A stretch of DNA of 64,000 nucleotides from an uncultured Methanoregulaceae archaeon. GTDB taxonomy: Archaea; Halobacteriota; Methanomicrobia; Methanomicrobiales; Methanospirillaceae. The stretch is from the NCBI GenBank assembly GCA_963701095.1, contig OY969564.1, positions 224,001 through 288,000 of the forward strand. The letters run 5' to 3'. The translations under genes and the position numbers were made by a program. This document shows, piece after piece, positions 44,877 through 62,501 of this stretch. Within the stretch, counting starts at the first letter, position 1. Each line of letters starts with the position of its first letter. The notes under the pieces are model-generated. The model searched no databases. It had not been told where the DNA came from and saw only the letters and a list, made by a program, of their open reading frames with translations.

Positions 44877-44908
44877 GGAAGGAATGTTCTTACTATCAAA
44901 TATAAATA
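44877..44908 (+). promoter_or_regulatory. Putative nif promoter: near-consensus NrpR-type box GGAA-GGAATG-TTCT (44877-44890) and TATA box TATAAATA (44901-44908)
   Basis: Best TATA-like element upstream of nifH; the box has one mismatch to GGAA-N6-TTCC. Confidence 0.45.
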
Positions 44909-44943
44909 TTTGTAATGCAATTATGATCTTGTAGAATGGAGGA

Positions 44944-45096
44944 ATGATGCCAGACACATTGCTTAATTCGAGAACTTCTCTCGGAAACAAGGTACTCGCG
45001 AAGCCCCAACAGAAATCGAGGGGCACAATAACACGATTATGCTCGGTTACTGCATCGGATATTTTGAAGCGGTTGATCTACTCTAGGGCGGAATGA
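44944..45096 (+). CDS. Putative 49-50 aa upstream ORF in nifH leader
   Basis: GGAGG at 44938-44942, then ATGATG and an open frame to TGA 45094-45096; no recognisable family. Confidence 0.3.
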   Translation: MMPDTLLNSRTSLGNKVLAKPQQKSRGTITRLCSVTASDILKRLIYSRAE

Positions 45097-45312
45097 CGAA
45101 TGCTCACACGTGTGAGGCGAGTTAAGAGCACGAACTCCTCCGCAATTACACGTGCTTTCGGCAGCTAGTCCCGAACCGGGAGTTGGATAAAACAGCTTGT
45201 GGCGAAAGGGGAAGCATGCACCCTTATTTTCCTGCAATATCCCTTGCACGAGCAAAACATGCAAAGATCGGTGATCATCTGCAGGAATCTAATGACGAAA
45301 TCCGGACTATAG

Positions 45313-46199
<887 letters not shown>

Positions 46200-46247
46200 A
46201 AGGCTGTAATTCGAGATTTTAAGAAAAAACCTGGCGGATGTGTGATT

Positions 46248-46574
46248 GTGTTATTAATACGTGCAATTGTTCGACCGGAGAAGAAAGATGAAGTTCTTGA
46301 GGAACTTTCTTCTGCGGGATTTAATGCGGCAACAATGGTAGATGTCGTCGGCCGTGGAAAGCAGAAAGGCATTAAAATCGGTGGCATGGTATACGACGAG
46401 ATCCCGAAGATCCTAATTCTTGTCGCGATCCAAGATGCGGACAAGGAAAAGGTCATCAAAACGATCTTAAAGACCGCAAAGACGGGGACCGAGGGGACAT
46501 TTGGTGACGGGAAGATCTTTGTTTCCCCAATCGAAGAGGTCTATACCATTTCAAAGGGTATTCAAGGACTCTAG
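46248..46574 (+). CDS. nifI1: Nitrogenase-regulatory PII protein NifI1
   Basis: GRGKQKG, YDEIPK, GDGKIF; between nifH and nifD. Confidence 0.92.
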   Translation: MLLIRAIVRPEKKDEVLEELSSAGFNAATMVDVVGRGKQKGIKIGGMVYDEIPKILILVAIQDADKEKVIKTILKTAKTGTEGTFGDGKIFVSPIEEVYTISKGIQGL

Positions 46575-46585
46575 GGAGGACTGCT

Positions 46586-47005
46586 ATGAAAGAGATTATG
46601 GCAGTCATCCGGATGAGGAGAACCAGCGCCACAAAAAAAGCACTTATCGCAGCAGGCGTGGCTGGTTTTACCGCGGTCAAGGTGTCCGGCCGGGGCAGGT
46701 TGGTAACCGATCTGACACAAATAGAAGAATGCAAAGAGAAGCTTCTGTCGATGGGCGTCAATGACTTTGGCGGGGTAGAAGATACCGAAAAACTGGTAAC
46801 GAGTTTCCTCAATGGTTCGAGGTTCTTCCCCAGAAGGCTCTTTAAGATCCTTGCTCACGATGAGGATGTGCCCCGTATTGTGGATGCAATAACCTGTGCT
46901 AACAAAACCGAATACGGCATTGGAGACGGTGTGATCTTTGTATTGCCGGTTCTCGACGCGGTTCGTGTTCGCACCGGTGAATCAGGAGAGGCAGCGATTT
47001 GGTGA
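46586..47005 (+). CDS. nifI2: Nitrogenase-regulatory PII protein NifI2
   Basis: MKEIMAVIR, TKKAL, GRG plus long T-loop, GDG, VRVRTGESG. Confidence 0.9.
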   Translation: MKEIMAVIRMRRTSATKKALIAAGVAGFTAVKVSGRGRLVTDLTQIEECKEKLLSMGVNDFGGVEDTEKLVTSFLNGSRFFPRRLFKILAHDEDVPRIVDAITCANKTEYGIGDGVIFVLPVLDAVRVRTGESGEAAIW

Positions 47006-47018
47006 GGTGACATAAGCT

Positions 47019-48644
47019 ATGGCAGACACTGAAAGTACAATCGACGAGATGATGACACCATACCCGGAGACGGTCAAGAAAAACCGGAAGAAGCACCTCA
47101 TCATCAAGGATGAGGAGGCTGCATGTTGTCCCCAGATCGAAGCGAACACAAGAACTATCCCCGGCATCATATCACAGCGAGGTTGTGCATACGCTGGATG
47201 CAAAAGTGTTGTTGTTGGTCCTATCAAGGACATGGTGACCATTACCCACGGTCCGGTAGGTTGTGGATATTATAGCTGGGGCACACGCCGGAACAAGGCA
47301 AGGGCAGATGATACGACACCCAATGACAAAATATACTCCCAGCTCTGCTTCACCACCGACATGCAGGAACCGGATATCGTCTTTGGCGGTGAGAAGAAAC
47401 TCGCACGTATGATAGATGAGGTTGTTGCCGCGTTCCACCCGCGTGCAATCAATATCTGCGCAACATGCCCGGTCGGGCTTATCGGAGACGATTTAGGTGC
47501 GGTTGCAAAAGCGGCAGAAGAGCGGCACGGGATCCAGGTGCTGGCCTATAACTGCGAGGGTTACAAGGGGGTCAGCCAATCGGCAGGCCACCACATTGCA
47601 AACAATAATGTGATGGAAAAAATTGTCGGTAAAGGAACCGAGCGAAAACCTGGTAGGTTTATCATTAATCTCCTTGGTGAATACAACATCGGTGGCGACG
47701 GTTGGGAGCTTGAGCGGATCCTTAAGGAGATCGGCTACATCGTTAATTGCGTCCTTACCGGGGATTCAAGTTACCTTGACATAAAGAACCTGCACCTTGC
47801 GGACTTAAATCTCGTCCAGTGCCACAGATCGATTAATTACATCGCTGAGATGATGGAAGCAAAGTACGGAACACCATGGCTGAAGGTCAATTTCATCGGT
47901 ATTGACGCAACAAACCAGTCTCTACGCCAGGTCGCGCGATGTTTCGGGGACGAGGAACTTGTCAGGAAAACCGAGGAAATTATTGAGCGGGAGACCGCCC
48001 GGGTTACTCCTACGCTCGACCAGTACCGGAAGGTACTGCTGGGCAAGACCGCATTTGCAATAGTCGGCGGCTCACGGAGTCACCACTATCAATATCTCCT
48101 TCGTGATCTTGGTATGGAAATGATCATTGCCGGTTATGAGTTTGCTCACCGGGACGATTACGAAGGCAGACAGGTGATCCCCACCATTAAGACCGATGCT
48201 GATAGCAAGAACATTCCAGAACTTCACCTCGTCCCTGATGAAAAAATGTACAAGGAAGCTCACGCTCACCTGAATATGTCAAAGGAAAAGTTCGACGAAA
48301 TGAACGCCGAAGTCCCTCTTAATTATTACGAAGGCATCTACCCAAACATGAAAAGCGGGCAGATTATCATCGATGACGCAAACCACCATGAGGTCGAAGT
48401 CCTGATACAGGCCGCAAAACCCGACCTCTTCCTCTCGGGAGTCAGGGACAAGTATATCGTCCACAAGATGGGCGTGGCTTCGAAACAGCTCCATGCCTAT
48501 GACTACAGCGGCCCCTATGCAGGATACAATGGTGCGATAAACTTCGCCCGTGATGTCGCAAAAGCCCTGACAACCCCTGCATGGAAATTGATCACCCCCC
48601 CATGGGAGAAAGAAAAAGAAACCCGGAGTGAGTCCGATGCTTGA
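47019..48644 (+). CDS. nifD: Nitrogenase MoFe protein alpha chain (group II type with insertion)
   Basis: RGCAYAGC, HGPVGC, QCHRS, GGSRSHH, ~50-aa group II insert, QLHAYDYSGPY. Confidence 0.95.
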   Translation: MADTESTIDEMMTPYPETVKKNRKKHLIIKDEEAACCPQIEANTRTIPGIISQRGCAYAGCKSVVVGPIKDMVTITHGPVGCGYYSWGTRRNKARADDTTPNDKIYSQLCFTTDMQEPDIVFGGEKKLARMIDEVVAAFHPRAINICATCPVGLIGDDLGAVAKAAEERHGIQVLAYNCEGYKGVSQSAGHHIANNNVMEKIVGKGTERKPGRFIINLLGEYNIGGDGWELERILKEIGYIVNCVLTGDSSYLDIKNLHLADLNLVQCHRSINYIAEMMEAKYGTPWLKVNFIGIDATNQSLRQVARCFGDEELVRKTEEIIERETARVTPTLDQYRKVLLGKTAFAIVGGSRSHHYQYLLRDLGMEMIIAGYEFAHRDDYEGRQVIPTIKTDADSKNIPELHLVPDEKMYKEAHAHLNMSKEKFDEMNAEVPLNYYEGIYPNMKSGQIIIDDANHHEVEVLIQAAKPDLFLSGVRDKYIVHKMGVASKQLHAYDYSGPYAGYNGAINFARDVAKALTTPAWKLITPPWEKEKETRSESDA

Positions 48645-50004
48645 ATGTGTACCGGAAGAAACAGTGAGCCACACGACAGGGAAGATCAACCCGGCAAAGA
48701 CCTGCCAGCCGATCGGCGCAATGTATGCGGCGCTTGGTATTTATGGATGCCTACCGCACAGTCATGGCTCGCAGGGTTGCTGTGCATATCACCGCATGCA
48801 TCTTACCCGGCATTTCCGTGACCCGGTGATTGCATCATCGAGCTCCTTTACTGAAGGAGCATCGGTCTTTGGCGGGGCAGCGAACTTAAAAACCTCTATA
48901 AAAAATGTCTTTACGATCTACAACCCCGAGGTCGTGGCTGTCCATACTACCTGTCTTTCGGAGACAATTGGCGATGATATCCCAAACATCCTCAAACAGG
49001 CCGAGATTCCCGAAGGAAAAGTGGTTATCCACGCTAACACGCCAAGTTACGCGGGTTCGCACATTACGGGTTTCTCAAACATGTGCAAAGCGATGGTCTC
49101 CTATCTTGCACAGTCCGATGGAGTGGTCAAAAAAGAGCAGGCAAACGTCCTGCCGGGTTTTGTCAATCCCGGGGATATGCGGGAGATCCGGCGCATCGTC
49201 TCGTCCCTCGGTATAAAACTTATCATGTTTCCGGACACATCCGGTGTCCTGGACTCGCCCCTTACAAGCAGGTACCAGATGTATCCTGAAGGTGGGGCAA
49301 CCGTTGCCGAAATTCGGGATTCGGGAAACTCGGAGGTCACGCTCGCACTTGGTGCATTTGCATCGCATGATGCTGCCGATATTCTTCAGGAAAAATGCGG
49401 TGTTACCGGTATTCCCTTAAAACTCCCCATTGGTCTTAAAGCCACCGATGATTTCATTATGGCGTTAAAAGACTGGTTTGGTGTTGAAGTTCCCGGTGCC
49501 TTGACTCTCGAACGTGGTCAGGTCATCGATACGCTGATCGACACCCATTTCCACTACCAGGGAAAAACGGTCGCTATCTTTGGGGATCCTGATCACGTCA
49601 TTGCCATGACTGAATTTGCGCTTACGATGGGTATGATCCCCAAATACCTGCTCACCGGTACACCCGGGAAGGAGTTCGAAGCGACCCTCAATAAAATGCT
49701 TGAAGAGGCAGGCATACAGGAAAGTCGGGTCAAGGCGGACGGGGATCTCTTCGATCTTCACCAATGGATCCGGGAAGAAAAAGTGGATCTCATGATCGGT
49801 ACAACTTATGGGAAATACATCTCCCGTGCAGAGGATATCCCGTTGGTCAGGTTCGGGTTTCCCATTCTTGACCGGGCCGTCCACCCGCTTATGCCCGTTG
49901 TTGGTTACCGAGGCTGCCTTCGCCTGATCGAGCAGATCAGTAACGCACTCCTCGAACGTCGTGATCGCGATGCTTTAGACGAGGATTTCGAACTGGTACT
50001 GTAA
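48637..50004 (+). CDS. nifK: Nitrogenase MoFe protein beta chain
   Basis: NPAKTCQPIGA, HGSQGCC, TTCLSETIGDD, GFPILDR. Confidence 0.95.
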   Translation: MLECVPEETVSHTTGKINPAKTCQPIGAMYAALGIYGCLPHSHGSQGCCAYHRMHLTRHFRDPVIASSSSFTEGASVFGGAANLKTSIKNVFTIYNPEVVAVHTTCLSETIGDDIPNILKQAEIPEGKVVIHANTPSYAGSHITGFSNMCKAMVSYLAQSDGVVKKEQANVLPGFVNPGDMREIRRIVSSLGIKLIMFPDTSGVLDSPLTSRYQMYPEGGATVAEIRDSGNSEVTLALGAFASHDAADILQEKCGVTGIPLKLPIGLKATDDFIMALKDWFGVEVPGALTLERGQVIDTLIDTHFHYQGKTVAIFGDPDHVIAMTEFALTMGMIPKYLLTGTPGKEFEATLNKMLEEAGIQESRVKADGDLFDLHQWIREEKVDLMIGTTYGKYISRAEDIPLVRFGFPILDRAVHPLMPVVGYRGCLRLIEQISNALLERRDRDALDEDFELVL

Positions 50005-50046
50005 GGACGAAAAAGAATTCCTTTTGGAAGAAAAGGAGGAGATATT

Positions 50047-51438
50047 ATGGAAGATTTATGTACGTTCCCGGCCAGTGCCGTCGCATGCATTGCTGAACGA
50101 CAGGATTCTATCCTGACGGCAGGCAAAAGCCGAGCACGCATCCACTGTGCTGATGACAGTCTTGCCGGTTCGGTCAGCCAGAGAGCCTGCGTGTTCTGCG
50201 GTGCCCGGGTCGTGTTAAACCCGGTCACCGATGCGGTCCACCTGGTTCACGGACCTATCGGCTGCGCCACCTATACCATGGACATCAGGGGGAGTCTGTC
50301 GAGCGGCTCCGAGTTATACCGCAACAGCTTCTCCACTGATATGAAAGAGAAAGATGTCATTTTCGGCGGCGAAAAAAAACTTACGGTCTGTATCGATGAG
50401 GTGGTAGGAAAATACCATCCACCGGCAGTATTTGTATACGCGACCTGTGTTTCGGGCATGATCGGCGATGATATCATTGCAGTCTGCAAGCAGGCCTCCA
50501 TCCGTCACGGTATTGATGTCATCCCGGTCGAATCCAGTGGGTTTATTTCCGGGAATAAGGTTGTCGGTTATCGGGCAGCAGCAGAAGCCCTTCTCCGGCT
50601 TATCCGCCCAAAAGAGGGAGAGACCATTGAAAAAACACAAAAGATCAATTTCCTCGGCGAATATAACCTCGGTGGGGAAAAATGGCTGGTCGAACGCTAC
50701 CTGAAGGAGATGGGCATTGAGATCAATGTTGCTTTCACGGGCGATTCAAATGTCGCTGCACTTAAACGTGCACCTTCAGCGTGCCTGAACCTCGTACAAT
50801 GTACCGGGTCGATGCACTGGGTTGCTGTAAGTCTCGAAAAATCCTTTGGAACGCCCTATATGGATGTGAATTTCTTCGGGCCGGAGAACACGGCGGAAAG
50901 TCTCCGAAAGATTGCAGCATTCTATGCTGATGAGGGTATCTCTCAGCGTGCAGAAACACTGATTGCTCGGGAGATGGGTCGGATCCGTCCCATGCTTGAG
51001 AAATACCGCAGTAAGCTTCGGGGGAAACGTGCTGCCATCTATGTGGGTGGTGCATACAAGGCGATTGCCATCATCCGCCAGCTCCGGGGCCTTGGTATGG
51101 AGATCGTGCTCTCCGGTACCCAGACCGGCAACCAGGACGAGTACGAAAGCATGAGCCGGCTGCTTTCCGAAGGCACAATCATTATTGATGACGCAAACCC
51201 GGCAGAACTGGAGAAATTCCTTCTCGAAAAGAAAGTGGATGTCATGGTCGGCGGTGTTAAAGAGCGTGTCCTTGCGTACAAACTTGGTATTGGTTTTGTT
51301 GACCACAACCATGACAGGAAAGACGGTCTTGCCGGATTTGATGGTGCCGTTCGTTTTGCCCGGGAGGTCTATGTTACAACGTGCTCACCGGTGTGGCAGC
51401 ATATTCGCACCCCGGCTTACGAGGATGTGTACTCATGA
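50047..51438 (+). CDS. nifE: FeMo-cofactor scaffold NifE
   Basis: SQRACVFCGA, HGPIGCA, ATCVSGMIGDD, LVQC. Confidence 0.92.
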   Translation: MEDLCTFPASAVACIAERQDSILTAGKSRARIHCADDSLAGSVSQRACVFCGARVVLNPVTDAVHLVHGPIGCATYTMDIRGSLSSGSELYRNSFSTDMKEKDVIFGGEKKLTVCIDEVVGKYHPPAVFVYATCVSGMIGDDIIAVCKQASIRHGIDVIPVESSGFISGNKVVGYRAAAEALLRLIRPKEGETIEKTQKINFLGEYNLGGEKWLVERYLKEMGIEINVAFTGDSNVAALKRAPSACLNLVQCTGSMHWVAVSLEKSFGTPYMDVNFFGPENTAESLRKIAAFYADEGISQRAETLIAREMGRIRPMLEKYRSKLRGKRAAIYVGGAYKAIAIIRQLRGLGMEIVLSGTQTGNQDEYESMSRLLSEGTIIIDDANPAELEKFLLEKKVDVMVGGVKERVLAYKLGIGFVDHNHDRKDGLAGFDGAVRFAREVYVTTCSPVWQHIRTPAYEDVYS

Positions 51439-52835
51439 CGGGTACACAGGTCGCACCAGTATCTGCAGATCTCCCCAGGTCTCGGCAGGTCAGCGAAAAC
51501 CAGTGCCATATGTGCATGTCGATTGGCGCTGTTGCCGTATTCAAAGGTATTGAAAATGCGATGGTCCTTGTCCACGGATCGCAGGGCTGCAGTACCTACA
51601 TGCGCCTCGCAAATGTCGAGCATTACAATGAGCCGGTCGATATTGCATCCTCATCATTGAACGAGAAGCAGGCCATCTATGGCGGTGAGGCTAATCTCAG
51701 GAAAGCGATGGACAATGTGATCCGGGTCTATCAACCGGTGGTGCTGGGGATCCTGACAACATGTCTTTCCGAAACAATGGGAGAGGATCTTGAACGGATT
51801 GTCTCTTCATATGTACAGGAAAAAGGGATTACTCGTGTCTCTATCATCCCGATAAACACTCCCAGTTATAGTGGGTCACAGAGTGAGGGGTTTTGGGCAG
51901 CGACACGAGGGGTGATCGCATATTGTGCCCGCCCTACTCTGCCGCATCAGCGCATTAACGTTATCGTCCCCCATATCAGCCCTGCCGACATCAGGGAGAT
52001 TAAACGCATTCTTGACTGTACGGGACTTTCGTATACGCTTATCCCGGATTATTCGATGACCCTTGACCGCCCGTATGAGGGACGGTACTTAAAAATAGCG
52101 CCCGGCGGGACTTCGGTTAAAGAGATAGCTGAAATGCCCGGATCTCCGGTTACTATCCAGTTTGGTTCTACCTGCCCAAATTCCCTGTCTCCGGGTTTAT
52201 TTCTTAAAGAGAAGTTCGGCGTTCCGCTCATCAACCTGCCCTTGCCCATTGGCCTTAAAAATACCGACCTCTTTGTCGAGACAATCACCAAAATCAGTGG
52301 ACAACCAGTACCTGACGCACTTACACTTGAACGCGGTTGGCTGCTCGATGGTATGGCCGATTCCCATAAGTTCAACGCAGAAGGAAGACCGGTTATCTAT
52401 GGGGAACCTGAGCTGGTTTATGCTTTTGCCACGCTCTGTGCGGAGAATGGTGCGGGCCCGGCGGTTATTGCAAGTGGCACAACAAACAGCCTGATTGCAA
52501 CATGTCTTGCTCCCCTTATTGAAACTGCTGATGAACCCCCGGTCATTCTTGAAGGAGCCGACATTGCGGCAATAGAAGAAGCGGCGTTGAAAACAGGATC
52601 AAACATTGCCATAGGTCATTCCGGGGGAAAATCCCTTACCGAACGACATAGCCTCCCCTTAGTGAGGGTTGGTTTTCCCATCCATGACCGGACTGGTGGC
52701 CAGAGGATCCTGTCTGCCGGATACCGGGGCACGCTAGCGTTTCTTGATCGCTTTACAAACACGCTTCTTGAAACCAAGTATGCAACGTACCGCCAGAAAA
52801 TAAAAGAAGAATATTGTAACACGGAGGGTATCTGA
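51435..52835 (+). CDS. nifN: FeMo-cofactor scaffold NifN (no fused NifB domain)
   Basis: CHMCMSIGA, HGSQGCSTY, TTCLSETMGED, GFPIHDRTGGQR; 4-nt overlap with nifE. Confidence 0.9.
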   Translation: MTGTQVAPVSADLPRSRQVSENQCHMCMSIGAVAVFKGIENAMVLVHGSQGCSTYMRLANVEHYNEPVDIASSSLNEKQAIYGGEANLRKAMDNVIRVYQPVVLGILTTCLSETMGEDLERIVSSYVQEKGITRVSIIPINTPSYSGSQSEGFWAATRGVIAYCARPTLPHQRINVIVPHISPADIREIKRILDCTGLSYTLIPDYSMTLDRPYEGRYLKIAPGGTSVKEIAEMPGSPVTIQFGSTCPNSLSPGLFLKEKFGVPLINLPLPIGLKNTDLFVETITKISGQPVPDALTLERGWLLDGMADSHKFNAEGRPVIYGEPELVYAFATLCAENGAGPAVIASGTTNSLIATCLAPLIETADEPPVILEGADIAAIEEAALKTGSNIAIGHSGGKSLTERHSLPLVRVGFPIHDRTGGQRILSAGYRGTLAFLDRFTNTLLETKYATYRQKIKEEYCNTEGI

Positions 52836-52837
52836 TT

Positions 52838-53146
52838 ATGCAAAAACCCAAACACCATATCTTTGTCTGCACAAGCTCCCGGGCAAACGGGCAACAAAAA
52901 GGATTCTGCCACGCAAAGGAAGGAGTCAGCATCATGGCAAAATTCATGGAGGAGATTGAAGAACGCGACTTAGGTGGAGAAGTATATCTGTCCAATACCG
53001 GCTGTTTCGGTATTTGCGAGAAAGGGCCTGTGGTGGTCGTATACCCGGACAATGTCTGGTATGGTTCGGTAATTCCTGATGATGTCCCCGTAATCCTTGA
53101 TGAACATATTGAGGGAGGAAAAGTGGTGGACCGCCTACTCATCTGA
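52838..53146 (+). CDS. Thioredoxin-like [2Fe-2S] ferredoxin (clostridial nif-associated type)
   Basis: HIFVCTSSR..GFC, TGCFGICEKGPVVVVYPDNVWY. Confidence 0.9.
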   Translation: MQKPKHHIFVCTSSRANGQQKGFCHAKEGVSIMAKFMEEIEERDLGGEVYLSNTGCFGICEKGPVVVVYPDNVWYGSVIPDDVPVILDEHIEGGKVVDRLLI

Positions 53147-53171
53147 GTGGATAGTCTTGTTTTTGGAGAAG

Positions 53172-53813
53172 ATGATGGCAGACGAAATTGCTGTGGTTCT
53201 TGGAGAAAATGGTTCGAGTTCCTCGCTGAACGAACCGGGAATGATAGTTGTCTTTGCCCGCACTAAAGGATCCTGGAAAAAGGATCGAGAGATGCCGCTT
53301 GTCCTTGACCCGGCTCAGGGAATGAAAGGGATGCGCGAAAAAATGGCAGGTATCATTGAATTTATGAGGAGCAGCCGGATCGTGGTTACCTCATCAGCCA
53401 GTGGAGCTCCATACTTTGAGCTCGAAAAAGCCCGCTGTGCTATTTGGGAAATCTCAGGGAAACCACAGGATTTTCTCAGTCAGGTCTGGGCAGATGAAGA
53501 AAAAGAGATGGCAAAGGAAAGAACCTCGTTACAAAAACGAGAAGGATCCGGGATACCCGTGCCTTTGGAAAAAACCCCGGGTACCTTTTACATTTCGATA
53601 AAAGAAGTCCAGGGCAAACGTCCTGATATCTCAAGCAAACAGGTACTCCAGCAATTTATTCAGAAAGGGGGGTTCCTGATCCTTGATATCATCTGCACCC
53701 ATGTGCCACCATGGATAGAAGTTGAAGCAGAGCGCCGTGGCTATACCCTAGAAACCGAAATGGTGGATAACGAAACCACCAGAGTCAGGTTAACGACATC
53801 CGCCAGTAAATAA
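53172..53813 (+). CDS. anfO: AnfO-family nitrogenase accessory protein
   Basis: IAVVLGENGSSSSLNEPG N-terminus, SSKQVLQQFI, IICTHVPPW C-terminal motif. Confidence 0.75.
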   Translation: MMADEIAVVLGENGSSSSLNEPGMIVVFARTKGSWKKDREMPLVLDPAQGMKGMREKMAGIIEFMRSSRIVVTSSASGAPYFELEKARCAIWEISGKPQDFLSQVWADEEKEMAKERTSLQKREGSGIPVPLEKTPGTFYISIKEVQGKRPDISSKQVLQQFIQKGGFLILDIICTHVPPWIEVEAERRGYTLETEMVDNETTRVRLTTSASK

Positions 53814-53886: not shown

Positions 53887-54216
53887 ATGAAGATGGTTCA
53901 AGCTATAATCCGGGCTGAGAAACTGGATATCATAAAAAAGGCACTCGAAGAGAAAGGTTTCATCGCCATGAGTATCATGGAAATTACCGGCAGGGGAGAA
54001 CAGAAAGGCATTACCCTTGAATACCGGGGTGCCATGGTAGAAGTGGATACCCTTCCTAAAATCATGATCCAGATGGCAGTTAACGATGAGGATGTCGATC
54101 CTATCATTGCCATCATCCGGGCTGCTGGTAGGACCGGGAATTTTGGTGACGGGAAGATCTTTGTCTGGCCTCTTGATCTGATGGCAAAGGTACGAACTGA
54201 TGAAGTCTGGAAATGA
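53887..54216 (+). CDS. glnK: PII nitrogen regulatory protein (GlnK type)
   Basis: GRGEQKGITLEYRG T-loop, LPK, TGNFGDGKIF; AGGAGG SD. Confidence 0.9.
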   Translation: MKMVQAIIRAEKLDIIKKALEEKGFIAMSIMEITGRGEQKGITLEYRGAMVEVDTLPKIMIQMAVNDEDVDPIIAIIRAAGRTGNFGDGKIFVWPLDLMAKVRTDEVWK

Positions 54217-54263
54217 GATTCAAACTATAAGGTAAATTCTGATATTGTATTTGGGAGTGTAGT

Positions 54264-55250
54264 GTGCCGGCGACATTAAAGGCAGGGGATATGGTCAGTG
54301 GTTACAATATTATAGGATTACTTGGTCAAGGCGGGTTTAGCCAGATCTATAAGGCACATTCCCCCGATGGCACACAGGTTATCCTTAAGTTTCCTGATGT
54401 ATCCATGCTTGGCGATCAGGCAACCTACGAACGGTTCCGCCGGGAGGTTGCTATCGGACAGAAGCTTGACCATCCGGCAATTCCTCATACAATCAGCTTT
54501 ATTGAGGGGCCAGACTCCGTCTTCCTCGTTATGGAATATATCGAAGGTCCGTCGCTTCGTGAATACATTACCGAAAAAGCACCCCTCCCTATCAAAGAAG
54601 GACTTTTACTCGCCGACCAGCTTGCTGAAGCCATTGATTACCTACATTCTCACGGCGTCTGTCACCGGGATCTCAAACCGGAGAATATCATTGTCGGGCC
54701 GGATAACAGTATCCATATCCTTGATTTTGGAAGTGCTTTGCTTGAAGGTTCCCGGCGTGTAACATGGCGGTGGGCGTCAAACGCTTTTGGAACGCCGGAT
54801 TATATGGCGCCCGAGCAGATCCAGGGAAAACGGGGGGATGTGCGTACCGACGTGTACGCACTCGGGATGATAGTGTATGAGATGCTTGCTGGGGCCCTGC
54901 CTTTTGAAGGAGATAATGTCCTTGCGGTGATGAACCAGCACCTGACGGGAGTCCCGGTTTCCCTTTGCAGTTTTCAACCCTCTATTCCAGCCGGGATCGA
55001 GGCTGTGATAATGAAATCCATACGCCGCGACCCCGATGAACGTTACCGGTCAGCGAGCGCTTTCAAGAAAGATCTTGATAATTATGCAGATCTGGATCTC
55101 TCTCAATTCCAGTCGAATCCTGAAGCTGCAGTAAGTGGTGGCGTACTTACTAACCACCAGATCTGGGTGCGGACTATCCTTGTTTTTGTCGGTTTCCTTG
55201 CATTGGTAGTATTAATTGTCCTTGCCGCATACCTGATGCACCATCATTAA
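54264..55250 (+). CDS. Hanks-type (bacterial PknB-like) Ser/Thr protein kinase with C-terminal TM anchor
   Basis: LGQGGFS, VILK, HRDLKPEN, DFG, GTPDYMAPE, DVYALG; terminal hydrophobic helix; no PASTA repeats. Confidence 0.93.
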   Translation: MPATLKAGDMVSGYNIIGLLGQGGFSQIYKAHSPDGTQVILKFPDVSMLGDQATYERFRREVAIGQKLDHPAIPHTISFIEGPDSVFLVMEYIEGPSLREYITEKAPLPIKEGLLLADQLAEAIDYLHSHGVCHRDLKPENIIVGPDNSIHILDFGSALLEGSRRVTWRWASNAFGTPDYMAPEQIQGKRGDVRTDVYALGMIVYEMLAGALPFEGDNVLAVMNQHLTGVPVSLCSFQPSIPAGIEAVIMKSIRRDPDERYRSASAFKKDLDNYADLDLSQFQSNPEAAVSGGVLTNHQIWVRTILVFVGFLALVVLIVLAAYLMHHH

Positions 55251-55279
55251 AAAAGTAAATTTATACAGGATCCGGGTTG

Positions 55280-55702
55280 TTATATCAGCGCCTTATCCCC
55301 CTGCTCTCCATTTCTGACCCGGATCGCACTGATCATCGGACAGACAAAGATTTTCCCGTCTCCGTGATGCCCGGTCTGGTTTGTGGTGATAAGTGTATCA
55401 ATTATGGGCCTTACGTCACTATCATTTGCGACTATGATAAGCATTCTTTTCGGAGAAAAACCGCGTTCCCGCTCATTTTCAGCCAGCCGGTTGTCCAGGT
55501 CTGTCAATGTATGAACCACATCCCGTCTCTGGAGTATACCTTTGACGGTGTAAGATGGATTTTTACCACGTAGAAACTGGGATTTGCTCGAGCCTCTCCC
55601 CGTAACATGCAAAAATGTTAAACCTGTGACGCCGAGATTCTTCAGGGCGTACTTGGTTTCTTCCACTTTCTCAGTTCTGATTATAGCGATGATCTTCTTC
55701 AT
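55280..55702 (-). CDS. PII-family protein, NifI2-like, with long Ser/Arg-rich T-loop
   Basis: MKKIIAIIR, TKYAL, VTGRG, PKRML, TGHHGDGKIF, IRVRNGEQG. Confidence 0.88.
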   Translation of the reverse strand: MKKIIAIIRTEKVEETKYALKNLGVTGLTFLHVTGRGSSKSQFLRGKNPSYTVKGILQRRDVVHTLTDLDNRLAENERERGFSPKRMLIIVANDSDVRPIIDTLITTNQTGHHGDGKIFVCPMISAIRVRNGEQGDKALI

Positions 55703-56070
55703 AGGCTAGTTTCGGTCTTTGCTGGAAGACTCGAATCATTCTTACGTGTTTCAGCGGTCCTGATCGTATACGCATCATCGACGTAGGTAACGAAGATCTT
55801 GCCGTCCCCGACAGCCCCATGCCCGGGATTCTCTTTCTGCCAGGTCTTTGCCATGGTGCTGATAATTTTTACCGCTCTCGCAACATCGATATCAGGAAGT
55901 ACGAGCATAAGCATCTCTTTAGGTATCTCCGAATAATTTGCCGTGACACCTATCTCAGCACCATGACCGGTGACATGCAAACGGGTCATTGCCGAAATGC
56001 CGATCTTCTCCAGTGCATCGATTACTTTTTGCGAATATTCCGGCCGGATAATAGCCCAAATCATTTTCAT
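55699..56070 (-). CDS. PII-family protein, NifI1-like, with degenerate T-loop
   Basis: MKMIWAIIRPE, GHGAEIG in place of GRGKQKG, YSEIPKEML, GDGKIF, YTIRT. Confidence 0.85.
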   Translation of the reverse strand: MKMIWAIIRPEYSQKVIDALEKIGISAMTRLHVTGHGAEIGVTANYSEIPKEMLMLVLPDIDVARAVKIISTMAKTWQKENPGHGAVGDGKIFVTYVDDAYTIRTAETRKNDSSLPAKTETSL

Positions 56071-56108
56071 CGATACACCGGTTCAAACATTCTTCCCACT
56101 TCACGCAG

Positions 56109-56968
56109 CTATCTTTTTCCAAGGAGCGTCCGCCATGAAAATGGATTAGCCGCTTGTTGTCCAAGGACCTCTATATGGAACATAATGCCCGTGATATTAT
56201 CCGGTGCCCCTCCGCTGAGCGCGAGCCTGACTAGTTTTTCACATCCCCTGCTCATATCAGTCTCCTCTAATGCGGAACGTATCTCTTCCTCAGTAAGTTC
56301 TGACCATAAACCATCGCTGCAGAGGAGGTATGTGTCGCCTTGCTTCACCGGCTGCCGGGTAATATCAGCATTCATGAACGGGTCCCCGCCAACAGAACGG
56401 GTAAGTTGGTGCCGGCCCGGTGATTTGATGCTTGACCCGAGGAGATCATGTGGAGCTGGAGCATGTCGCTTGCCATGGTATGATCCCGGGTCAGCTGATA
56501 GATATGGCCATCTCTCATCCGGTAGAGGCGGCAGTCACCAACATGGCCAAGAGTCAATAAATCATTTTCTAACACGGCAATAGTCAAAGTAGTCTGCATT
56601 TTCTGGAATAGTTCCGGATCGGTTTGAGCCACGCAGAAAATCTTCTGGTTTGCTTTCTGCATTGCCCGATTAACCATACTGTCTGCCTGTCCTCCATGCC
56701 AGGCATGGAACTCCTCTTTTATGGCTTTAAGTGCCATCCTGCTTGCGATGGCACCACCCCGGTGACCGCCCAGACCGTCGGCAACTGCAAAGATATATCG
56801 AGAAGACGATTCAGTGTCGGTTTTTCCATTGATAACGTGAGTAACCCAGTGGGCATCTTCGTTCTGCGAACGTGTCAGACCCTGATGAGTAATAGCCCGC
56901 CAGGTAACGATTACACCAATCAGGTGGGGCGTCTTGTCTGTCTGGGCAGTTATCGCATTTTCTTCCAT
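56109..56968 (-). CDS. PP2C/PPM-family Ser/Thr phosphatase; one-base deletion at ~56420
   Basis: RSQNEDA, VADGLGGHRGG, TTLT, HVGDCRLY, QLTRDH; shifted frame HQLTRSVG, LLCSDGL, GAPDNIT. Confidence 0.92.
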
Positions 56969-57100
56969 AGTGACCACAATGACTCGATCTATAATTAAAA
57001 GATATAGGTACCGGGTCTAGCAGATTACCTGCAAGATACCTCTACCTTTCTTCTTTTGACTCCGGTCAGATATTTTCTCATCTTTTGCAATGTGGTAAGG

Positions 57101-58681
57101 CTATGAATCATCCTGTTCAAGTCCGGTTGCCTGTGGCAAGTGCCCTGTCATAATGGGACCACCCTGTTTTTTCGTATTGGAGATAAACCAGACTGCACCG
57201 GCCACGAGCCAGACAATCACCATCGCAATCGCAATCAGTGCATCAGTTGCCGAGCTACCTCCGGAGCTGATACCTAGCCAGACGACTGCACCAAGCATAA
57301 CGATGTTTGCAAGAAAACCAAGCAGCGGAACTACCCGGTGTTTTAAGAAATTGGCATCAGGGCGGTGGAAGAAAGCCCAGAGTGCAATGAGGTTGGTCAG
57401 GCCATACAGGAGGAACGTGCCGGTATTAGATGCAAGCGTAATCTGTGTCAGGTTATCGATATTCAGGACACCGTATGCACCCAGCACGGCGGATATCCCG
57501 ACAAGGATCCAGATACCGTAGTGCGGTGTATCATATTTCCCGTGAAGAAGGCCAAGGAGTGTTGGCATCTCTTTGTCTTTTCCCATGGCATAAGTAATCC
57601 GTACCCCGGTGTTAAAGCAGGCAAGGGTTGTCCCGATCAGTGCGAGTACCACTGTTGCAGCCATAATTAAGACTAATACAAAACCCGTCCCGCCGAGCAT
57701 CTGGTCGCCGATTACCCGGATCATGTCACCGATTGGTGCCCCGGAAGCCGCCGTTGCCGCATACCCTGAGATCGCCGCTCCCGTCGCATCCGTTCCCGTT
57801 AGTTGGGGGCCGACAAAATAATTGGCGGCGAAGTATTCGAACAGATAGGCGAATGCACCCTGAATGATGAGGGAGAGCAGGATTGCTTTTTTAATATCCT
57901 GTTTTGGCCGGAGCGCTTCTGAGCCCAGTGATGTCACCGATTCGAACCCTACCAGCAATAGTATGGCAATGGTTGACTGGAACAACAGGTTTGTGAAGTT
58001 GTGCGGTATGAGAATTGTTGAAACCGAGGTGGCATACACCAAGTTGGGGTGGGTCTCCCGGTAGAGGATTGCCAGAATCGAAAACCCGATAAGGGCTACT
58101 AACTGGATTGTGTTGATGACAATCGCAGTCATTGTCGAACCGGTTATTCCACGGTATGCAATATATCCGTTGAGTAGGGCAAACAAAATTGCAACTAGGA
58201 TCTGTTCCGGCACTGAAAGGGCAATTCCAAAGAGGCCGAAGATATAAACAATCAGGATAGCTGAAAAAGCCACCATGATACCCGGATAGATCCAGTAGTA
58301 CAGATGCGATATCCAGCCGACAAGGAATTTAGCGACTCGTGCCCATTGCCGATGTCCCGCTTTTTCTTTCTCAAGAAATGAGGCTTCCGCATAATAATAG
58401 GAAGAGCCGGAACCGGCTTTGGGATAGATGTTTGCTAATTCTGCGTAAGATATAGCGGTTAAAAACGCAAGAACAAGCGCGGCCAGGAGGCCAGTCCACA
58501 TCTCTCCGGCAGTTGTTACACCCCCATTGGTCTGTGCTGCTTGTACCTGAAATGTGGTCCAGAGAAATGCCCCGGGCGCAATCAATGCCATCGCATTGAC
58601 CAGAAGCGAGGTCAAATTCAGTGTGCGTTTCATTGTTCCGGTTTTTGGGGCAGTTGTTGTTGGATTTCCTTCCTCTGTCAT
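57101..58681 (-). CDS. APC-family (amino acid/amine/cation) permease
   Basis: About 12 TMs; AISYAELANIYPKAGSG, VGFESVTSLGSE, RITYAMGKD..LH.KYDTP; GGAG SD. Confidence 0.9.
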   Translation of the reverse strand: MTEEGNPTTTAPKTGTMKRTLNLTSLLVNAMALIAPGAFLWTTFQVQAAQTNGGVTTAGEMWTGLLAALVLAFLTAISYAELANIYPKAGSGSSYYYAEASFLEKEKAGHRQWARVAKFLVGWISHLYYWIYPGIMVAFSAILIVYIFGLFGIALSVPEQILVAILFALLNGYIAYRGITGSTMTAIVINTIQLVALIGFSILAILYRETHPNLVYATSVSTILIPHNFTNLLFQSTIAILLLVGFESVTSLGSEALRPKQDIKKAILLSLIIQGAFAYLFEYFAANYFVGPQLTGTDATGAAISGYAATAASGAPIGDMIRVIGDQMLGGTGFVLVLIMAATVVLALIGTTLACFNTGVRITYAMGKDKEMPTLLGLLHGKYDTPHYGIWILVGISAVLGAYGVLNIDNLTQITLASNTGTFLLYGLTNLIALWAFFHRPDANFLKHRVVPLLGFLANIVMLGAVVWLGISSGGSSATDALIAIAMVIVWLVAGAVWFISNTKKQGGPIMTGHLPQATGLEQDDS

Positions 58682-58757
58682 CGTAATGCATCTCCTTGAA
58701 AGGACAAAGATTTTCAATCGAAACTGTAGACCTAATCATTAATCTGACTTAGGACAT

Positions 58758-58771
58758 GGAAAGTATATTCC
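58758..58771. promoter_or_regulatory. Perfect NrpR-type operator GGAA-AGTATA-TTCC between the divergent APC permease and BASS genes
   Basis: Exact GGAA-N6-TTCC; ~10 nt downstream of a minus-strand AT-rich TATA-like element (~58780-58792). Confidence 0.6.
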
Positions 58772-58895
58772 TTCTATTGCTTAAAAATATATCTATTAAT
58801 ACATTTGAAGATCAAAAGAAAGGTATGGCGAAAATCTCTTCATGTTTCAACTGCTTTTCAATATCTTGGGATACTATCCGGGAGAAAAGTCTGTG

Positions 58896-59844
58896 ATGAA
58901 GATATTTGCCTGGATCACCGATCACCTTATTTACTTTGTATTGGGTGTCGGCATAGTGTCTTTTCTTTTTCCGGGACCGGGTTCCTTATTCGGATGGATT
59001 GTCACACCGGTTTTGGCATTAATGGTACTTTCTATCAGTATGACAATTAACGTCGGTGATTTAATTCGCGTAAGCAAATATCCGTTAGTTATTGTCTGGA
59101 GTGTGATCTTGCAATTTGTCGTAATGGCGCTTTTTTCAATACTTCTTGGAAGAATTTTTCTCTCCCCTATGACAGCTATGAACACCGGCCAGGTTCTCTT
59201 AGGATCTCTTCCTGCTGATATCTCCGCTCCTCTCATGATTTCCATTGTTGAAGGTGATACTGCACTTGGAATAGCGATGCTCGTGACTGCAATGGTGCTT
59301 ACACCCTTTGTCCTGCCCAATATTCTTACGCTCTTTGGTGGAATAACCCTGTCAGTACCAACAAGATACTTGGAAGTTGAGTTGGTAGGGATAATTATAA
59401 TTCCCTTGATTCTTGGGATAGTCTTAAACTATTATTCAGCTGAACGTCCGGGAAAAACGAGATACATGGCCAGGTTTGGCTGCCCTTTGTTATCTTCTGC
59501 TCCTGTTCGTCGTTGTTTCATCCAACGTCGGGACAATCGTCTCTTTAAAAGAATTCGCTTTTGTCATTATTGGTGTGGAAATATTGCTTAATCTCTTTGG
59601 TTATGGTCTAGCCTATCTGTCAAAGAGAATCTTTAAACAATCCCGGGCCACATTTCTTTCACTTTTATTCATCACTAGTACCAAGGAATTCGGTATTGCT
59701 CCTGCCGCCGTCAGCACAATGGAACTAAAAAATACCGTTACTATACCTTCGGTGTTTTATGCGGTCATCCAGATGATCTCTGCACCCGTGGTTGTAAAAA
59801 TAGTAAAGTATTGGGACTCTCGTACGCATGAAGAGCCTATTTGA
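58896..59844 (+). CDS. Bile acid:sodium symporter (BASS)-family transporter; frameshift at ~59445
   Basis: Multi-TM; ILQFVVMAL, GSLPADISA, GDTALGIAMLV..LTPF; continues in the next frame to 59844. Confidence 0.75.
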
Positions 59845-60107
59845 TGAATCAGTTTGTATTTGGAGATTACATTTCGGGCCCTCACCGTTAGATCAAAGAT
59901 TTAGTGGCGCGTAGCTGAGCTGAATCTAAAAACCGGTTGAGAATACGTTTGGCATTCAACGTCGAGATTAGTAAACTATATAAAACAAAGATCGCACTTT
60001 CCTTCCACAATTTTTTTATAATAAAAGATGGAACGCAGCTAATGTGAATGCTTTACAAGCATCTCATGATGAAGGTGTATTCCATTGGGGCGTCGTCTCT
60101 TTGGTCG

Positions 60108-62501
60108 ATGATCAAAAAACAGATCAAACCAGCTGTAATCCTGTTTCTTTTACTCACGATTCTCGTGGGCATCGTTTACCCGTTGGTTGTAACCGGTATC
60201 GCTCAGGTGATCTTCCCCACACAGGCAAATGGGGATCTTATTGTTCATGATGGAAATGTTGTAGGATCTTCTCTCATAGGCCAACCGTTTTCCTCCCCGG
60301 AATATTTCTGGGGGCGTCTTTCTGCTACATCACCGATTCCCTACAATGCGGAAGCTTCCGGTGGTTCAAATTTAGGCCCGCAGAACCCTGCACTTATTTC
60401 AGAAGTTCATGCCCGGATAGATGATCTTCATGCAGTTGATCCGAATAATACGCAGCTTATTCCTGTTGATCTGGTAACGTCTTCGGGAAGTGGGCTTGAT
60501 CCGGATATCAGCCCGGCGGCAGCGTATTATCAGGTCCCACGGGTCGCCCGGGTGAGGAATCTTTCTGAAAACGACGTTTCTGCACTGGTGGCGGCCAACA
60601 CTGAAAACCCCTTACTTGGGCTATTTGGTGAGCCGGCAGTAAATGTCCTGAACCTGAATCTGGCACTCGATGATTTGAACGCCCATACAACTACGGCTCC
60701 AAAAGAGGCAGTTCCCCTAAATCAGCACACAAACACGATGTTCGGAATTACGATCAATGACTGGGTCTTCCTTGTCCTGATTGGTGTGATTCTTGCACTC
60801 CTCCTGGTTCCTATGGGGGAGTTTATGTTCCGGATTTATACCGGCAAACAGACATTCCTTTCACCGGTATTCATTCCCCTGGAAGGATGGCTCCTAAAGG
60901 TGTGCGGTGCCGGAAGTGATACCGAAATGGACTGGAAGGAGTTTACTGTCGCGATGATGGTATTTTCCGTTATCGGGATCGCGTTTGTTTTCATCCTTCA
61001 GGAAGTCCAGCAGTATCTCCCGCTCAACCCCCTCGCTGCCGGCCCCGTTTCCTGGGACCTCTCATTAAACACTGCCGTAAGTTTTGCCACAAACACCAAT
61101 TGGCAGTTCTACGTCCCGGAAACGACAATCAGTTACCTGACGCAGATGATGGGACTTGCTGTCCAGAACTTCATGTCTGCTGCCGTAGGTATGGCAGTCC
61201 TTGTTGCTTTCATTTACGGTTTCTCTCGGAGGTCAACCCTTACCATTGGCAACTTCTGGGTGCTCTTACTCCGGGGAATCTGGATTCTCTTACCGATTAG
61301 TTTCGTCATAGCCCTTGTTCTTGTCTCGCAAGGAACACCCCAGACATTTGGCGGGCCTGTGACAGTTCCAATCCTTAATCCCGTGAATGACTCAAATGGT
61401 AACCTTGTAACGACGCAATCCCTATCACTGGGACCTGCGGCATCTCAGATTGCCATAAAAATGCTTGGTACGAATGGTGGAGGATTCTTTAATGCCAACT
61501 CGGCCCATCCTTACGAAAATCCGACGTGGTTATCGAATCTTATTGAGATTATTGCCATTCTCCTGATACCCATATCCCTGTGTTTCATGTTCGGGAAGAT
61601 GATAGGATCAGTAAAGAAGGGGATGGCTGTCCTTATTGCGATGACCATTCTCTTCCTTCCCCTCCTGGGTCTTGGCATTTATTCGGAAATGGGCGGAAAC
61701 CCGGCATTCACTCCGCTCGGGATTGACCAGACTCCCTCGCATCTCCAACCCGGGGGCAACATGGAGGGGAAGGAAGTTCGGTTCGGGATTGTCCCTTCAG
61801 CGGCCTTCTCAGTTATCACGACGGTAACCAGTTGCGGTGCGGTAAATTCAATGCATGATTCCTTCATGCCGCTGGGGGGACTGGTCCAGATATTCGACAT
61901 CCAGTTGGGTGAAATTGTCTACGGCGGTGTCGGTTCCGGCCTGTACTGTATGCTGGTGTTCATCATCATTGCAATGTTTATCGCCGGATTAATGGTAGGT
62001 CGAACGCCGGAATTGTACGGCAAGAAGATTGAGCCGTACGAGATGAAACTGTCCACTATCCACATTCTTATCCCCATCTTTTTGATCCTGATTGGAACCG
62101 CTATCGCAGTGTCGATTACAGCAGGCACTTCCGCGGTCTTTAACCCGGGGCCGCATGGCTTCTCCGAGATCCTGTACGCGTTCAGTTCAGTATCCCAGAA
62201 CAATGGCAGTGCTTTTGCAGGGTTGTCTTCAAACCTGTTTTACAACATATCAACAGCAATCTGCATGTTCATCGGGCGCTATGCTATCGCCATCATCACG
62301 CTCGCTCTCGCCGGGGCGTTTGTTAAGAAGAAGATTGTGCCTGCATCCGAAGGGACATTGCAGGACCACCGGCCGCTCTTTATTATCTGGGTAATTGGTA
62401 CTATCCTCATCATTGGAGCGCTTAGTTTCCTGCCGGCCTTGTCCCTTGGTCCCATTGTAGAATTCCTGATCCAGTTGGGAAGGAGTGTTATCCATGTCTG
62501 A
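60108..62501 (+). CDS. kdpA: Fused KdpC-KdpA potassium-transporting ATPase subunit
   Basis: N-terminal KdpC (YPLVVTGIAQVIFPTQANG, SGGSNLGP, VTSSGSGLDPDIS, VNVLNLNLALD) in frame with KdpA (SFATNTNWQ, LGTNGGGFF, GGVGSG, NNGSAFAG); start uncertain (60048-60108). Confidence 0.93.
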   Translation: MIKKQIKPAVILFLLLTILVGIVYPLVVTGIAQVIFPTQANGDLIVHDGNVVGSSLIGQPFSSPEYFWGRLSATSPIPYNAEASGGSNLGPQNPALISEVHARIDDLHAVDPNNTQLIPVDLVTSSGSGLDPDISPAAAYYQVPRVARVRNLSENDVSALVAANTENPLLGLFGEPAVNVLNLNLALDDLNAHTTTAPKEAVPLNQHTNTMFGITINDWVFLVLIGVILALLLVPMGEFMFRIYTGKQTFLSPVFIPLEGWLLKVCGAGSDTEMDWKEFTVAMMVFSVIGIAFVFILQEVQQYLPLNPLAAGPVSWDLSLNTAVSFATNTNWQFYVPETTISYLTQMMGLAVQNFMSAAVGMAVLVAFIYGFSRRSTLTIGNFWVLLLRGIWILLPISFVIALVLVSQGTPQTFGGPVTVPILNPVNDSNGNLVTTQSLSLGPAASQIAIKMLGTNGGGFFNANSAHPYENPTWLSNLIEIIAILLIPISLCFMFGKMIGSVKKGMAVLIAMTILFLPLLGLGIYSEMGGNPAFTPLGIDQTPSHLQPGGNMEGKEVRFGIVPSAAFSVITTVTSCGAVNSMHDSFMPLGGLVQIFDIQLGEIVYGGVGSGLYCMLVFIIIAMFIAGLMVGRTPELYGKKIEPYEMKLSTIHILIPIFLILIGTAIAVSITAGTSAVFNPGPHGFSEILYAFSSVSQNNGSAFAGLSSNLFYNISTAICMFIGRYAIAIITLALAGAFVKKKIVPASEGTLQDHRPLFIIWVIGTILIIGALSFLPALSLGPIVEFLIQLGRSVIHV

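Follow-up and report, generated by a model that had tools for sequence, protein, structure and literature searches.

Nitrogen control in methanogens is understood in terms of NrpR, the GlnK-AmtB pair and the NifI proteins, and protein phosphorylation does not feature in that picture. Here we examine a gene cluster that adjoins the nif (nitrogen fixation) genes of an uncultured Methanoregulaceae archaeon (assembly GCA_963701095.1, contig OY969564.1, positions 224,001 to 288,000); this whole stretch of 64,000 nucleotides is referred to below as the window. The cluster sets an active-looking Hanks-type Ser/Thr kinase and PP2C phosphatase, three PII proteins and an uncharacterized APC-superfamily permease under an NrpR-type operator beside nif, in methanogens of nitrogen-poor peat. 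Its ingredients are already known singly: Hanks kinase/PP2C pairs, PII-gated transporters, NifI and NrpR have each been described. In Methanococcus maripaludis, GGAAN6TTCC is the NrpR operator consensus and precedes nif, glnA, glnK-amtB and a nitrogen-source symporter, according to the accessible portion of that study (PMC2723118). Excerpts from a 2015 review by Merrick (PMC4285133) describe the kinase of cyanobacterial PII as unidentified and say that PII modification had yet to be reported in archaea. Our analysis suggests a phosphorylation switch on nitrogen uptake in archaea, and we give an even chance to the reading that the locus is a module for uptake and signalling, regulated by nitrogen and equipped with a membrane phospho-switch whose kinase would act on presumed targets.

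The permease, PP2C and kinase of the window are, by their sequences, orthologous to the proteins of a cassette that is not specific to methanogens and that occurs across six or more bacterial phyla. Searching species-representative genomes with a permease-family profile gave an estimated 2900 stretches; 79 loci, the best of 600 taken, were analysed, and gene order was counted in the 62 loci with at least 3.5 kb of DNA downstream of the permease. The order permease, PP2C, kinase was found in 55 of these 62 loci, co-directional in all 55 (Chloroflexota 24, Ignavibacteriota 9, Actinomycetota 8, Bacteroidota 5, Dormiibacterota 3, Methanoregula 3, Acidobacteriota 2, unplaced 1). In 40 of 49 loci where the available DNA was long enough, a glutamine synthetase (GS) gene begins no more than 600 nt past the kinase, and these GS genes are heterogeneous, with some passing the GlnA type I cut-off and others falling below it. 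Other frequent neighbours are a BBP2 porin, PII, AmtB and a sigma-54/GAF activator. PII genes are accessory to the cassette: a PII match lies within 7 kb in at least 20 of the 79 loci (tblastn), and the insertion points vary, between PP2C and kinase in L101 and L103 and before the porin in Bacteroidota, with the order kinase, GS, PII, permease in L058. The window departs from the full co-directional order of permease, PP2C, kinase and GS in that its kinase is inverted and has no GS gene after it, and the cassette order minus GS is present in the related loci G020, L025 and L027. The first-pass annotation of this DNA had proposed a nitrogen signalling module in which the kinase and PP2C are a cognate writer and eraser for PII. 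That the module is conserved and linked to nitrogen holds up, but a primary tie to PII does not, since the kinase and PP2C go primarily with the permease, and usually with a GS gene, and PII is the accessory member.

Membership of the permease operon in the nitrogen regulon is very probable, with NrpR as the presumed binding protein. Five observations lead to this placement: operator position, its conservation in relatives, a layout shared with glnA1, glnA2 and amtB2, an NrpR gene in the same genome, and the published consensus. The perfect GGAA-N6-TTCC site that had been read upstream of the permease operon is confirmed at the position given in Table 1; a TATA-like box precedes it by 8 nt, and the likely ATG at 58681 follows ~77 nt after it. 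Box, spacer and operator recur upstream of the permease in 9/9 Methanoregula loci (window, G020, L025, L026, L027, L028, G002, G165 and G227), and this layout is kept despite diverged flanking DNA, a varied gene arrangement, or a GlnK gene inserted in front; the TATA-box consensus of the relatives is AAATATTTATAA. Genome-wide there are 109 exact GGAA-N6-TTCC sites, 14 of them outside crude gene calls, and 4 of these 14 share the arrangement of TATA box, 8-10 nt and operator, namely those before the permease, glnA1, glnA2 and amtB2-glnK. Among the proteins of this genome is an NrpR homologue containing HTH_12 and NRD1_2 domains, so the window site has what is expected of a candidate NrpR operator, that is, GGAAN6TTCC at a nitrogen-gene promoter in an NrpR-encoding genome. 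The case for the operator is made by position and conservation, not by count. The exact motif occurs once in the window versus 2.02 copies expected by chance and its one-mismatch form at 49 sites versus 40 expected; enrichment by count was dropped because neither figure is above chance.

All catalytic residues are present in both the kinase and the PP2C. The kinase scores 174.3 bits against Pkinase (PF00069; cut-off 31.7), and K42, HRD 134-136, DFG 154-156, T167 and E184 are invariant among 60 kinase orthologues. Its C-terminus consists of one hydrophobic helix with 6 trailing residues and it carries no sensor domain, an architecture that is shared by all 64 of 64 cassette kinases (319-335 aa, a terminal hydrophobic 19-mer, a tail of 1-13 aa, no sensor domain). 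Identity between the window kinase and cassette kinases is 38-57%, versus at most 37% with other kinases of its own genus. Co-folding of permease and kinase (alignments A3 and A4) gave a score of 0.02 versus a mark of 0.32, which speaks neither for nor against binding.

The PP2C is split in the window into two open reading frames (ORFs) of 201 and 88 aa, with a frame break at ~56418-56420 and 0 residues lost; positions 2-150 and 166-231 of the Stp1/IreP model fall in different frames across the gene. Short-read contigs from 3/3 DNA runs (X2, X3 and X4, from other samples of the study that the window probably came from) have one extra G behind 56418 and are otherwise identical there. The phosphatase is therefore intact in nature, the split in the window is an assembly error, and a pseudogene, which was considered, is ruled out because this one G restores the frame. 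The metal-binding Asp motifs NED, ADGLGG, VGD, SDG and DN are retained, and the family match is 48.5 bits versus a cut-off of 24 (PP2C_2). Two further genes of the window are frameshifted: nifH (45373-46196), with a frame change between 45981 and 46056, and the SBF transporter gene (58842-59796), with a frame change between 59381 and 59443. These breaks are probably assembly errors too, because the PP2C break is one, and together with a completeness score of only 86% for this single-contig genome they fit an indel-prone assembly. One RNA run (X15) gave no contig over the stretch, and the other RNA runs were represented by small shares only.

The permease belongs to the APC superfamily (AA_permease, 57.2 bits versus a cut-off of 24.6) and, judged by its sequence relationships, is a member of a highly conserved, uncharacterized APC subfamily that is 50-72% identical between the window and bacterial copies. 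Searches for its substrate with NCBIfam models and with a family profile against solved structures gave distant APC matches only: no NCBIfam model scored above its cut-off (best TIGR00909, 85.9 versus 556.8), and matches to solved APC transporters were weak (best E 7e-12). The permease more likely starts at ATG 58681, which has AGGAGA 8 nt upstream, than at TTG 58717. As a side observation, the permeases of L031, a Bathyarchaeota metagenome-assembled genome (MAG), and of protein P0085 carry a fused C-terminal TPR domain; L031 has no PP2C or kinase within its flank, and AmtB and PII are close by.

Table 1. Features of the cluster downstream of nif (window coordinates).
Feature	Position	Strand	Evidence or remark
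GlnK-type PII, 109 aa	53887-54216	+	Pfam P-II 87.5 bits
Tail-anchored Hanks-type Ser/Thr kinase, 328 aa	54264-55250	+	Pkinase 174 bits
NifI2-like PII, 140 aa, very long T-loop	55280-55702	-	Pfam P-II 85 bits
NifI1-like PII, 123 aa	55699-56070	-	Pfam P-II 78.3 bits
PP2C phosphatase	56109-56977	-	PP2C_2 48.5 bits; one gene, two ORFs in window
APC-superfamily permease	57101-58717	-	AA_permease 57 bits; likely start ATG 58681
Candidate NrpR operator GGAA-N6-TTCC	58758-58771	.	
TATA-like box of permease operon, GATATATTTTTAAG on - strand	58780-58792	-	8 nt upstream of operator

Every gene that the first-pass annotation had named in the cluster (PII, Hanks kinase, PP2C, APC permease, NifI1-like and NifI2-like PII) was found in its place and confirmed with Pfam (Table 1), as was the 47-nt gap between the glnK stop (54216) and the kinase GTG (54264). 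The NifI1-like and NifI2-like genes overlap by 4 nt. The preceding nif cluster (45373-53813) contains nifH, nifI1, nifI2, nifD, nifK, nifE, nifN, a 2Fe-2S ferredoxin and an AnfO-like protein, with the canonical nifI1 and nifI2 at 46242-47005. Its 3' end (52838-53813) encodes the ferredoxin, of clostridial type, and the AnfO-like protein (PF09582, 208 bits), both of which are kept in the nif clusters of relatives (L120-L122). The nifH leader is long, with ~480 nt between a TATA-like element near 44900 and the nifH ATG (44877-45372 region), and a one-mismatch GGAA-N6-TTCC at 44877-44890 lies 9 nt away on the upstream side of this TATA element; L120 and L121 have exact sites there. Apart from one tRNA, no Rfam family was matched anywhere in the window, including the nifH leader. 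Past the permease lie the SBF transporter gene and then kdp genes. The latter include a KdpC-KdpA fusion on the + strand (60048-62501), one 817-aa ORF with KdpC at residues 27-208 and KdpA at 245-807, followed by kdpB from 62592 to the window end. For kdp genes, neither this fusion nor the order C-A-B is usual; the fusion also occurs in G020 (823 aa), and KdpCA matches adjoin the cassette in L025-L027.

The three extra PII proteins all exceed the Pfam PF00543 cut-off of 25 (87.5, 85.4 and 78.3 bits). Among solved structures the 109-aa protein comes closest to Archaeoglobus GlnB-1 and GlnB-3 (E 1e-33), but its gene lies next to anfO and the kinase and not in an operon with amtB as is expected of glnK; the amtB1-amtB2-glnK locus of the genome is separate, at ~2.49 Mb. 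That main nitrogen locus (L104, G000:C1:2482000-2495500) holds a PII gene, split GOGAT-like genes, glnA1, amtB1, amtB2 and glnK. In 9 Methanoregula loci an orthologue of the 109-aa PII adjoins the kinase or permease. Cassette-linked GlnK has Thr at residue 55 (VDTLPK) in 10/10 rows, and the amtB-linked GlnK of the genus has Met, Leu or Val there, which makes Thr55 a candidate phospho-acceptor, although one ancestral substitution may account for it. Position 49 of cassette-linked GlnK is Ala (YRGAMVE), so the cyanobacterial RGSEY motif with Ser49 is missing, and it is absent from both NifI-like proteins as well, in an alignment with NifI1 and NifI2 of the window. Cassettes of Bacteroidota and Ignavibacteriota provide a separate observation: in L078, L096 and L098 a PII gene upstream of porin, permease, PP2C, kinase and GS encodes a YRGSEY T-loop, including the cyanobacterial phospho-site Ser49.

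The NifI-like proteins form a tandem pair with one short and one long T-loop by alignment, which is the structural arrangement of NifI1 and NifI2. The 123-aa member has NifI1 traits (a short T-loop and an insert before GDGKIF), and its best solved relative is chain 9p1x_H, the NifI1 chain of the Methanosarcina acetivorans nitrogenase-NifI supercomplex (E 1.6e-15 versus 3.7e-11 for the next). The 140-aa member matches the NifI2 chain 9p1x_G as well as it matches a canonical GlnB; its T-loop, rich in Ser and Thr, has 38 residues versus 19 in 9p1x_G and 11 in canonical PII. Identity of the pair to NifI1 and NifI2 of the window is only 35-36% (35% for the 140-aa PII to NifI2), and the pair follows PP2C (55280-56070) instead of lying between nifH and nifD, where NifI genes are expected. 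The earlier premise that NifI1/2 genes normally sit only between nifH and nifD does not survive a wider survey of the genus. Genes for GlnK, NifI1-like and NifI2-like proteins occur in that order in 9/9 further Methanoregula loci fetched (L111-L119), with AmtB visible upstream in 7/9, and therefore NifI-type pairs are not confined to nif in this genus. Some of these operons carry two tandem NifI-like pairs, and several adjoin a glnA2-type GS gene. Matches to the NifI1-like protein occur in 19/61 genomes of the genus, the proteins of other Methanoregula being 56-68% identical to it, and 8 of these 19 genomes with a pair have no NifD match, including 3 that are 96-99% complete, which speaks against a function limited to nitrogenase. 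Between anfO and the cassette, G227 has an operon made up of an amtB remnant, glnK and the NifI1-like and NifI2-like genes, a layout that looks like an intermediate toward the window arrangement.

The permease occurs in 11/301 genomes of the order, sampled from 43 genera, and all 11 belong to Methanoregula, as do the closest named permeases; in the genus sample it was found in 8/61 genomes. A permease tree rooted on paralogous APC permeases places 7 Methanoregula rows in one clade (Shimodaira-Hasegawa-like approximate likelihood ratio, SH-aLRT, 99), sister to two Chloroflexia MAGs (SH-aLRT 98) and nested among bacteria. Both PP2C and kinase have their best matches outside Methanoregula in the same two Chloroflexia MAGs. 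The simplest reading of these relationships is that the complete cassette was acquired from a bacterium in a single transfer, with the direction given by nesting and rooting, and the tree thus fits the bacterial origin that had been put forward for phylogenetic testing. Co-location of the orthologues was likewise borne out: each of the Methanoregula carriers inspected has them together, with four or more arrangements seen. The cluster lies downstream of anfO and convergent in the window and G227, directly upstream of nifH and co-directional in G315 (with the PII trio) and in G165 (without the NifI-like pair), and far from nif in G020 (~0.7 Mb from nifD). NifD is encoded in 7 of the 8 carrier genomes of the genus sample, and the permease lies at most 9 kb from nifD in 6 of 8. 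Such persistent linkage to nif through rearrangement fits a shared role or regulation.

We propose that the cluster has two sources. A bacterial cassette would have contributed an APC permease for a nitrogen-related solute, PP2C and a sensor-less, membrane-tethered kinase, and the three PIIs would be of the type found in other amtB-glnK-nifI1like-nifI2like operons of Methanoregula. When nitrogen is plentiful, NrpR would repress the permease operon. Once the operon is on, kinase and PP2C would reversibly phosphorylate a membrane-proximal target, most likely the permease itself or a PII docked on it; the permease is the single constant gene partner of the kinase besides PP2C. Such a phospho-switch would gate uptake fast, as GlnK plugs AmtB, and the PIIs would pass 2-oxoglutarate and ATP/ADP status to it. 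Several points weigh against this proposal. The glnK-kinase pair has no exact operator of its own and is inverted relative to the permease operon, so it may be separately regulated. The carrier genomes are related and hence are not independent cases, and the set of 79 loci is skewed toward close relatives of the query. Seven of the 62 informative loci lack PP2C, kinase or both downstream of the permease (L058, L029, L063, L031, L041, L047 and L069). The count of 20/79 loci with PII is a lower bound, because tblastn missed a PII in L073 that Pfam found.

Other explanations assign the kinase and PP2C a different target. They could write and erase phosphorylation of PII (the GlnK type, the NifI-like pair or both), and the modified PIIs would then control the permease or nitrogenase. 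The short gap between glnK and the kinase, an adjacency repeated in G020, L025, L026 and L027, favours this idea, as do the entry of PII genes into the cassette at different positions in different lineages (L101, L103, Bacteroidota, L058), the restriction of Thr55 to cassette-linked GlnK, the long Ser/Thr-rich loop of the NifI2-like protein and the YRGSEY motif of Bacteroidota cassette PIIs. We nevertheless consider it unlikely: 59/79 loci have no PII match within 7 kb and most of these retain kinase and PP2C, the Methanoregula GlnK type has Ala at position 49, Thr55 may reflect a single ancestral change, and PII modification was unreported in archaea in the excerpted 2015 review (PMC4285133). 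A broader version is doubtful to a greater degree, namely that a permease-coupled, tethered kinase and PP2C write nitrogen supply onto PII, at GlnK Thr55 or the long NifI2-like loop, and so couple solute uptake to the shut-down of nitrogenase and GS. We find it similarly improbable that the kinase and PP2C in fact act on GS, by analogy with its adenylylation, with the permease only supplying or sensing a GS substrate and glnA2 relocated in the window lineage. The frequent GS gene after the kinase (40/49) speaks for this, as does the order GlnK, permease, PP2C, kinase, GS in G002; glnA2 of the genome shares 88% identity with the G002 cassette GS and 60% with the GS encoded next to the Chloroflexia cassettes, and it has the same operator layout. 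Yet no GS gene follows the kinase in the window, G020, L025, L027 or L028, a membrane tether is unexpected in a kinase that acts on a soluble enzyme, and the GS genes of the cassettes vary. The idea that glnA2-type GS and the cassette are inherited together was also considered and set aside as not specific, because this GS occurs in 22/61 genomes of the genus versus 8/61 for the cassette.

Proximity to nif could instead mean that the NifI-like pair forms an additional complex for nitrogenase switch-off and that the cluster exists to regulate nitrogenase. The cassette lies within 9 kb of nifD in most carriers across four arrangements, the pair has the loop features of NifI1 and NifI2, and target specificity is set by NifI2 T-loops, according to the available part of PMC12439982. 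This explanation is very unlikely in view of the pair-bearing genomes without a NifD match (8/19, three of them 96-99% complete), the usual company of the pair, which is amtB-glnK, the canonical nifI1 and nifI2 already present in the window, the distance of ~0.7 Mb from nifD in G020, and the cassettes without the pair in G002, L028 and G165. There is, finally, the idea that the genes have no joint function and only happen to lie together in a nitrogen island that rearrangement built up; orientation and content do vary among relatives, and the glnK-kinase pair is inverted in the window. The permease-PP2C-kinase order across at least six bacterial phyla, the conserved operator and the repeated recruitment of PII make this highly improbable. 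The nitrogen-regulated uptake and signalling module with a membrane phospho-switch is the reading that we carry forward.

If the broader, doubtful version held, in which nitrogen supply is written onto PII, archaeal nitrogen control would gain its first circuit based on Ser/Thr phosphorylation, and the PII modification would occur in a domain without such reports in the excerpted review of 2015. The permease and kinase-phosphatase pair is widespread in wetland bacteria, usually with GS, and a shared, unstudied layer of nitrogen regulation may therefore exist. The cultured Methanoregula boonei 6A8 encodes an orthologue of the NifI1-like PII (NCBI), which makes ordinary experiments feasible. The first-pass annotation knew of no such system in methanogens, and the literature searched, which covered little of the subscription journals, yielded none: no account of the cassette or of such a Methanoregula module was found there, nor of the combination, the dedicated APC subfamily, amtB-linked NifI-like pairs or the whole module in an archaeon.

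Comparison with described systems indicates where the cluster is conventional and where it departs from them. The nearest counterpart is the bacterial permease-PP2C-kinase-GS cassette, with which it shares the permease subfamily (50-72% identity), PP2C and the 319-335-aa tail-helix kinase, and also the gene order in G020, L025 and L027. It differs in several ways: no GS gene follows the kinase, three PIIs lie in the cluster, the promoter is archaeal and bears an NrpR-type operator, the glnK-kinase pair is inverted, and the cluster adjoins nif. For the NrpR regulon of M. maripaludis, the accessible portion of the study (PMC2723118) gives the same consensus before nitrogen genes, including a nitrogen-source transporter; that species belongs to another order, the window operon comprises permease, phosphatase and PIIs, and the operator here is predicted. 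The actinobacterial GlnH-GlnX-PknG-OdhI/GarA system, as far as the material available on it goes, likewise ties external amino-nitrogen to glutamate metabolism through a Hanks kinase operon with membrane and solute-handling proteins. It uses a binding protein and a transducer and no permease, PknG is soluble with TPR repeats, and the operon lacks PP2C and PII.

The PII-based systems provide the remaining comparisons. As in GlnK-AmtB, in the excerpts of the Merrick review (PMC4285133), a GlnK-type PII is encoded beside a nitrogen-regulated transporter, and fast post-translational gating is what we propose here. The window transporter is, however, an APC protein and not Amt, a kinase and phosphatase are added, and the Amt trimer matches the PII trimer, a correspondence without known counterpart for this permease. 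The cyanobacterial PII Ser49/PphA system, known to us from the same excerpts (PMC4285133), also brings PII and a PP2C-family phosphatase together in nitrogen signalling, and it had been invoked as a precedent for this cluster. That precedent fails at the site itself, where cassette GlnK has Ala49; in addition, a kinase is encoded in the window cluster, and PP2C follows the permease, not PII. With the NifI1/NifI2 complex, in the available part of its description (PMC12439982; PDB 9p1x), the window pair shares tandem overlapping genes, a short and a long T-loop, and a best match of the 123-aa PII to the NifI1 chain. It is set apart by its position outside the nifH-nifD interval, its 35-36% identity and the far longer T-loop of its 140-aa member.

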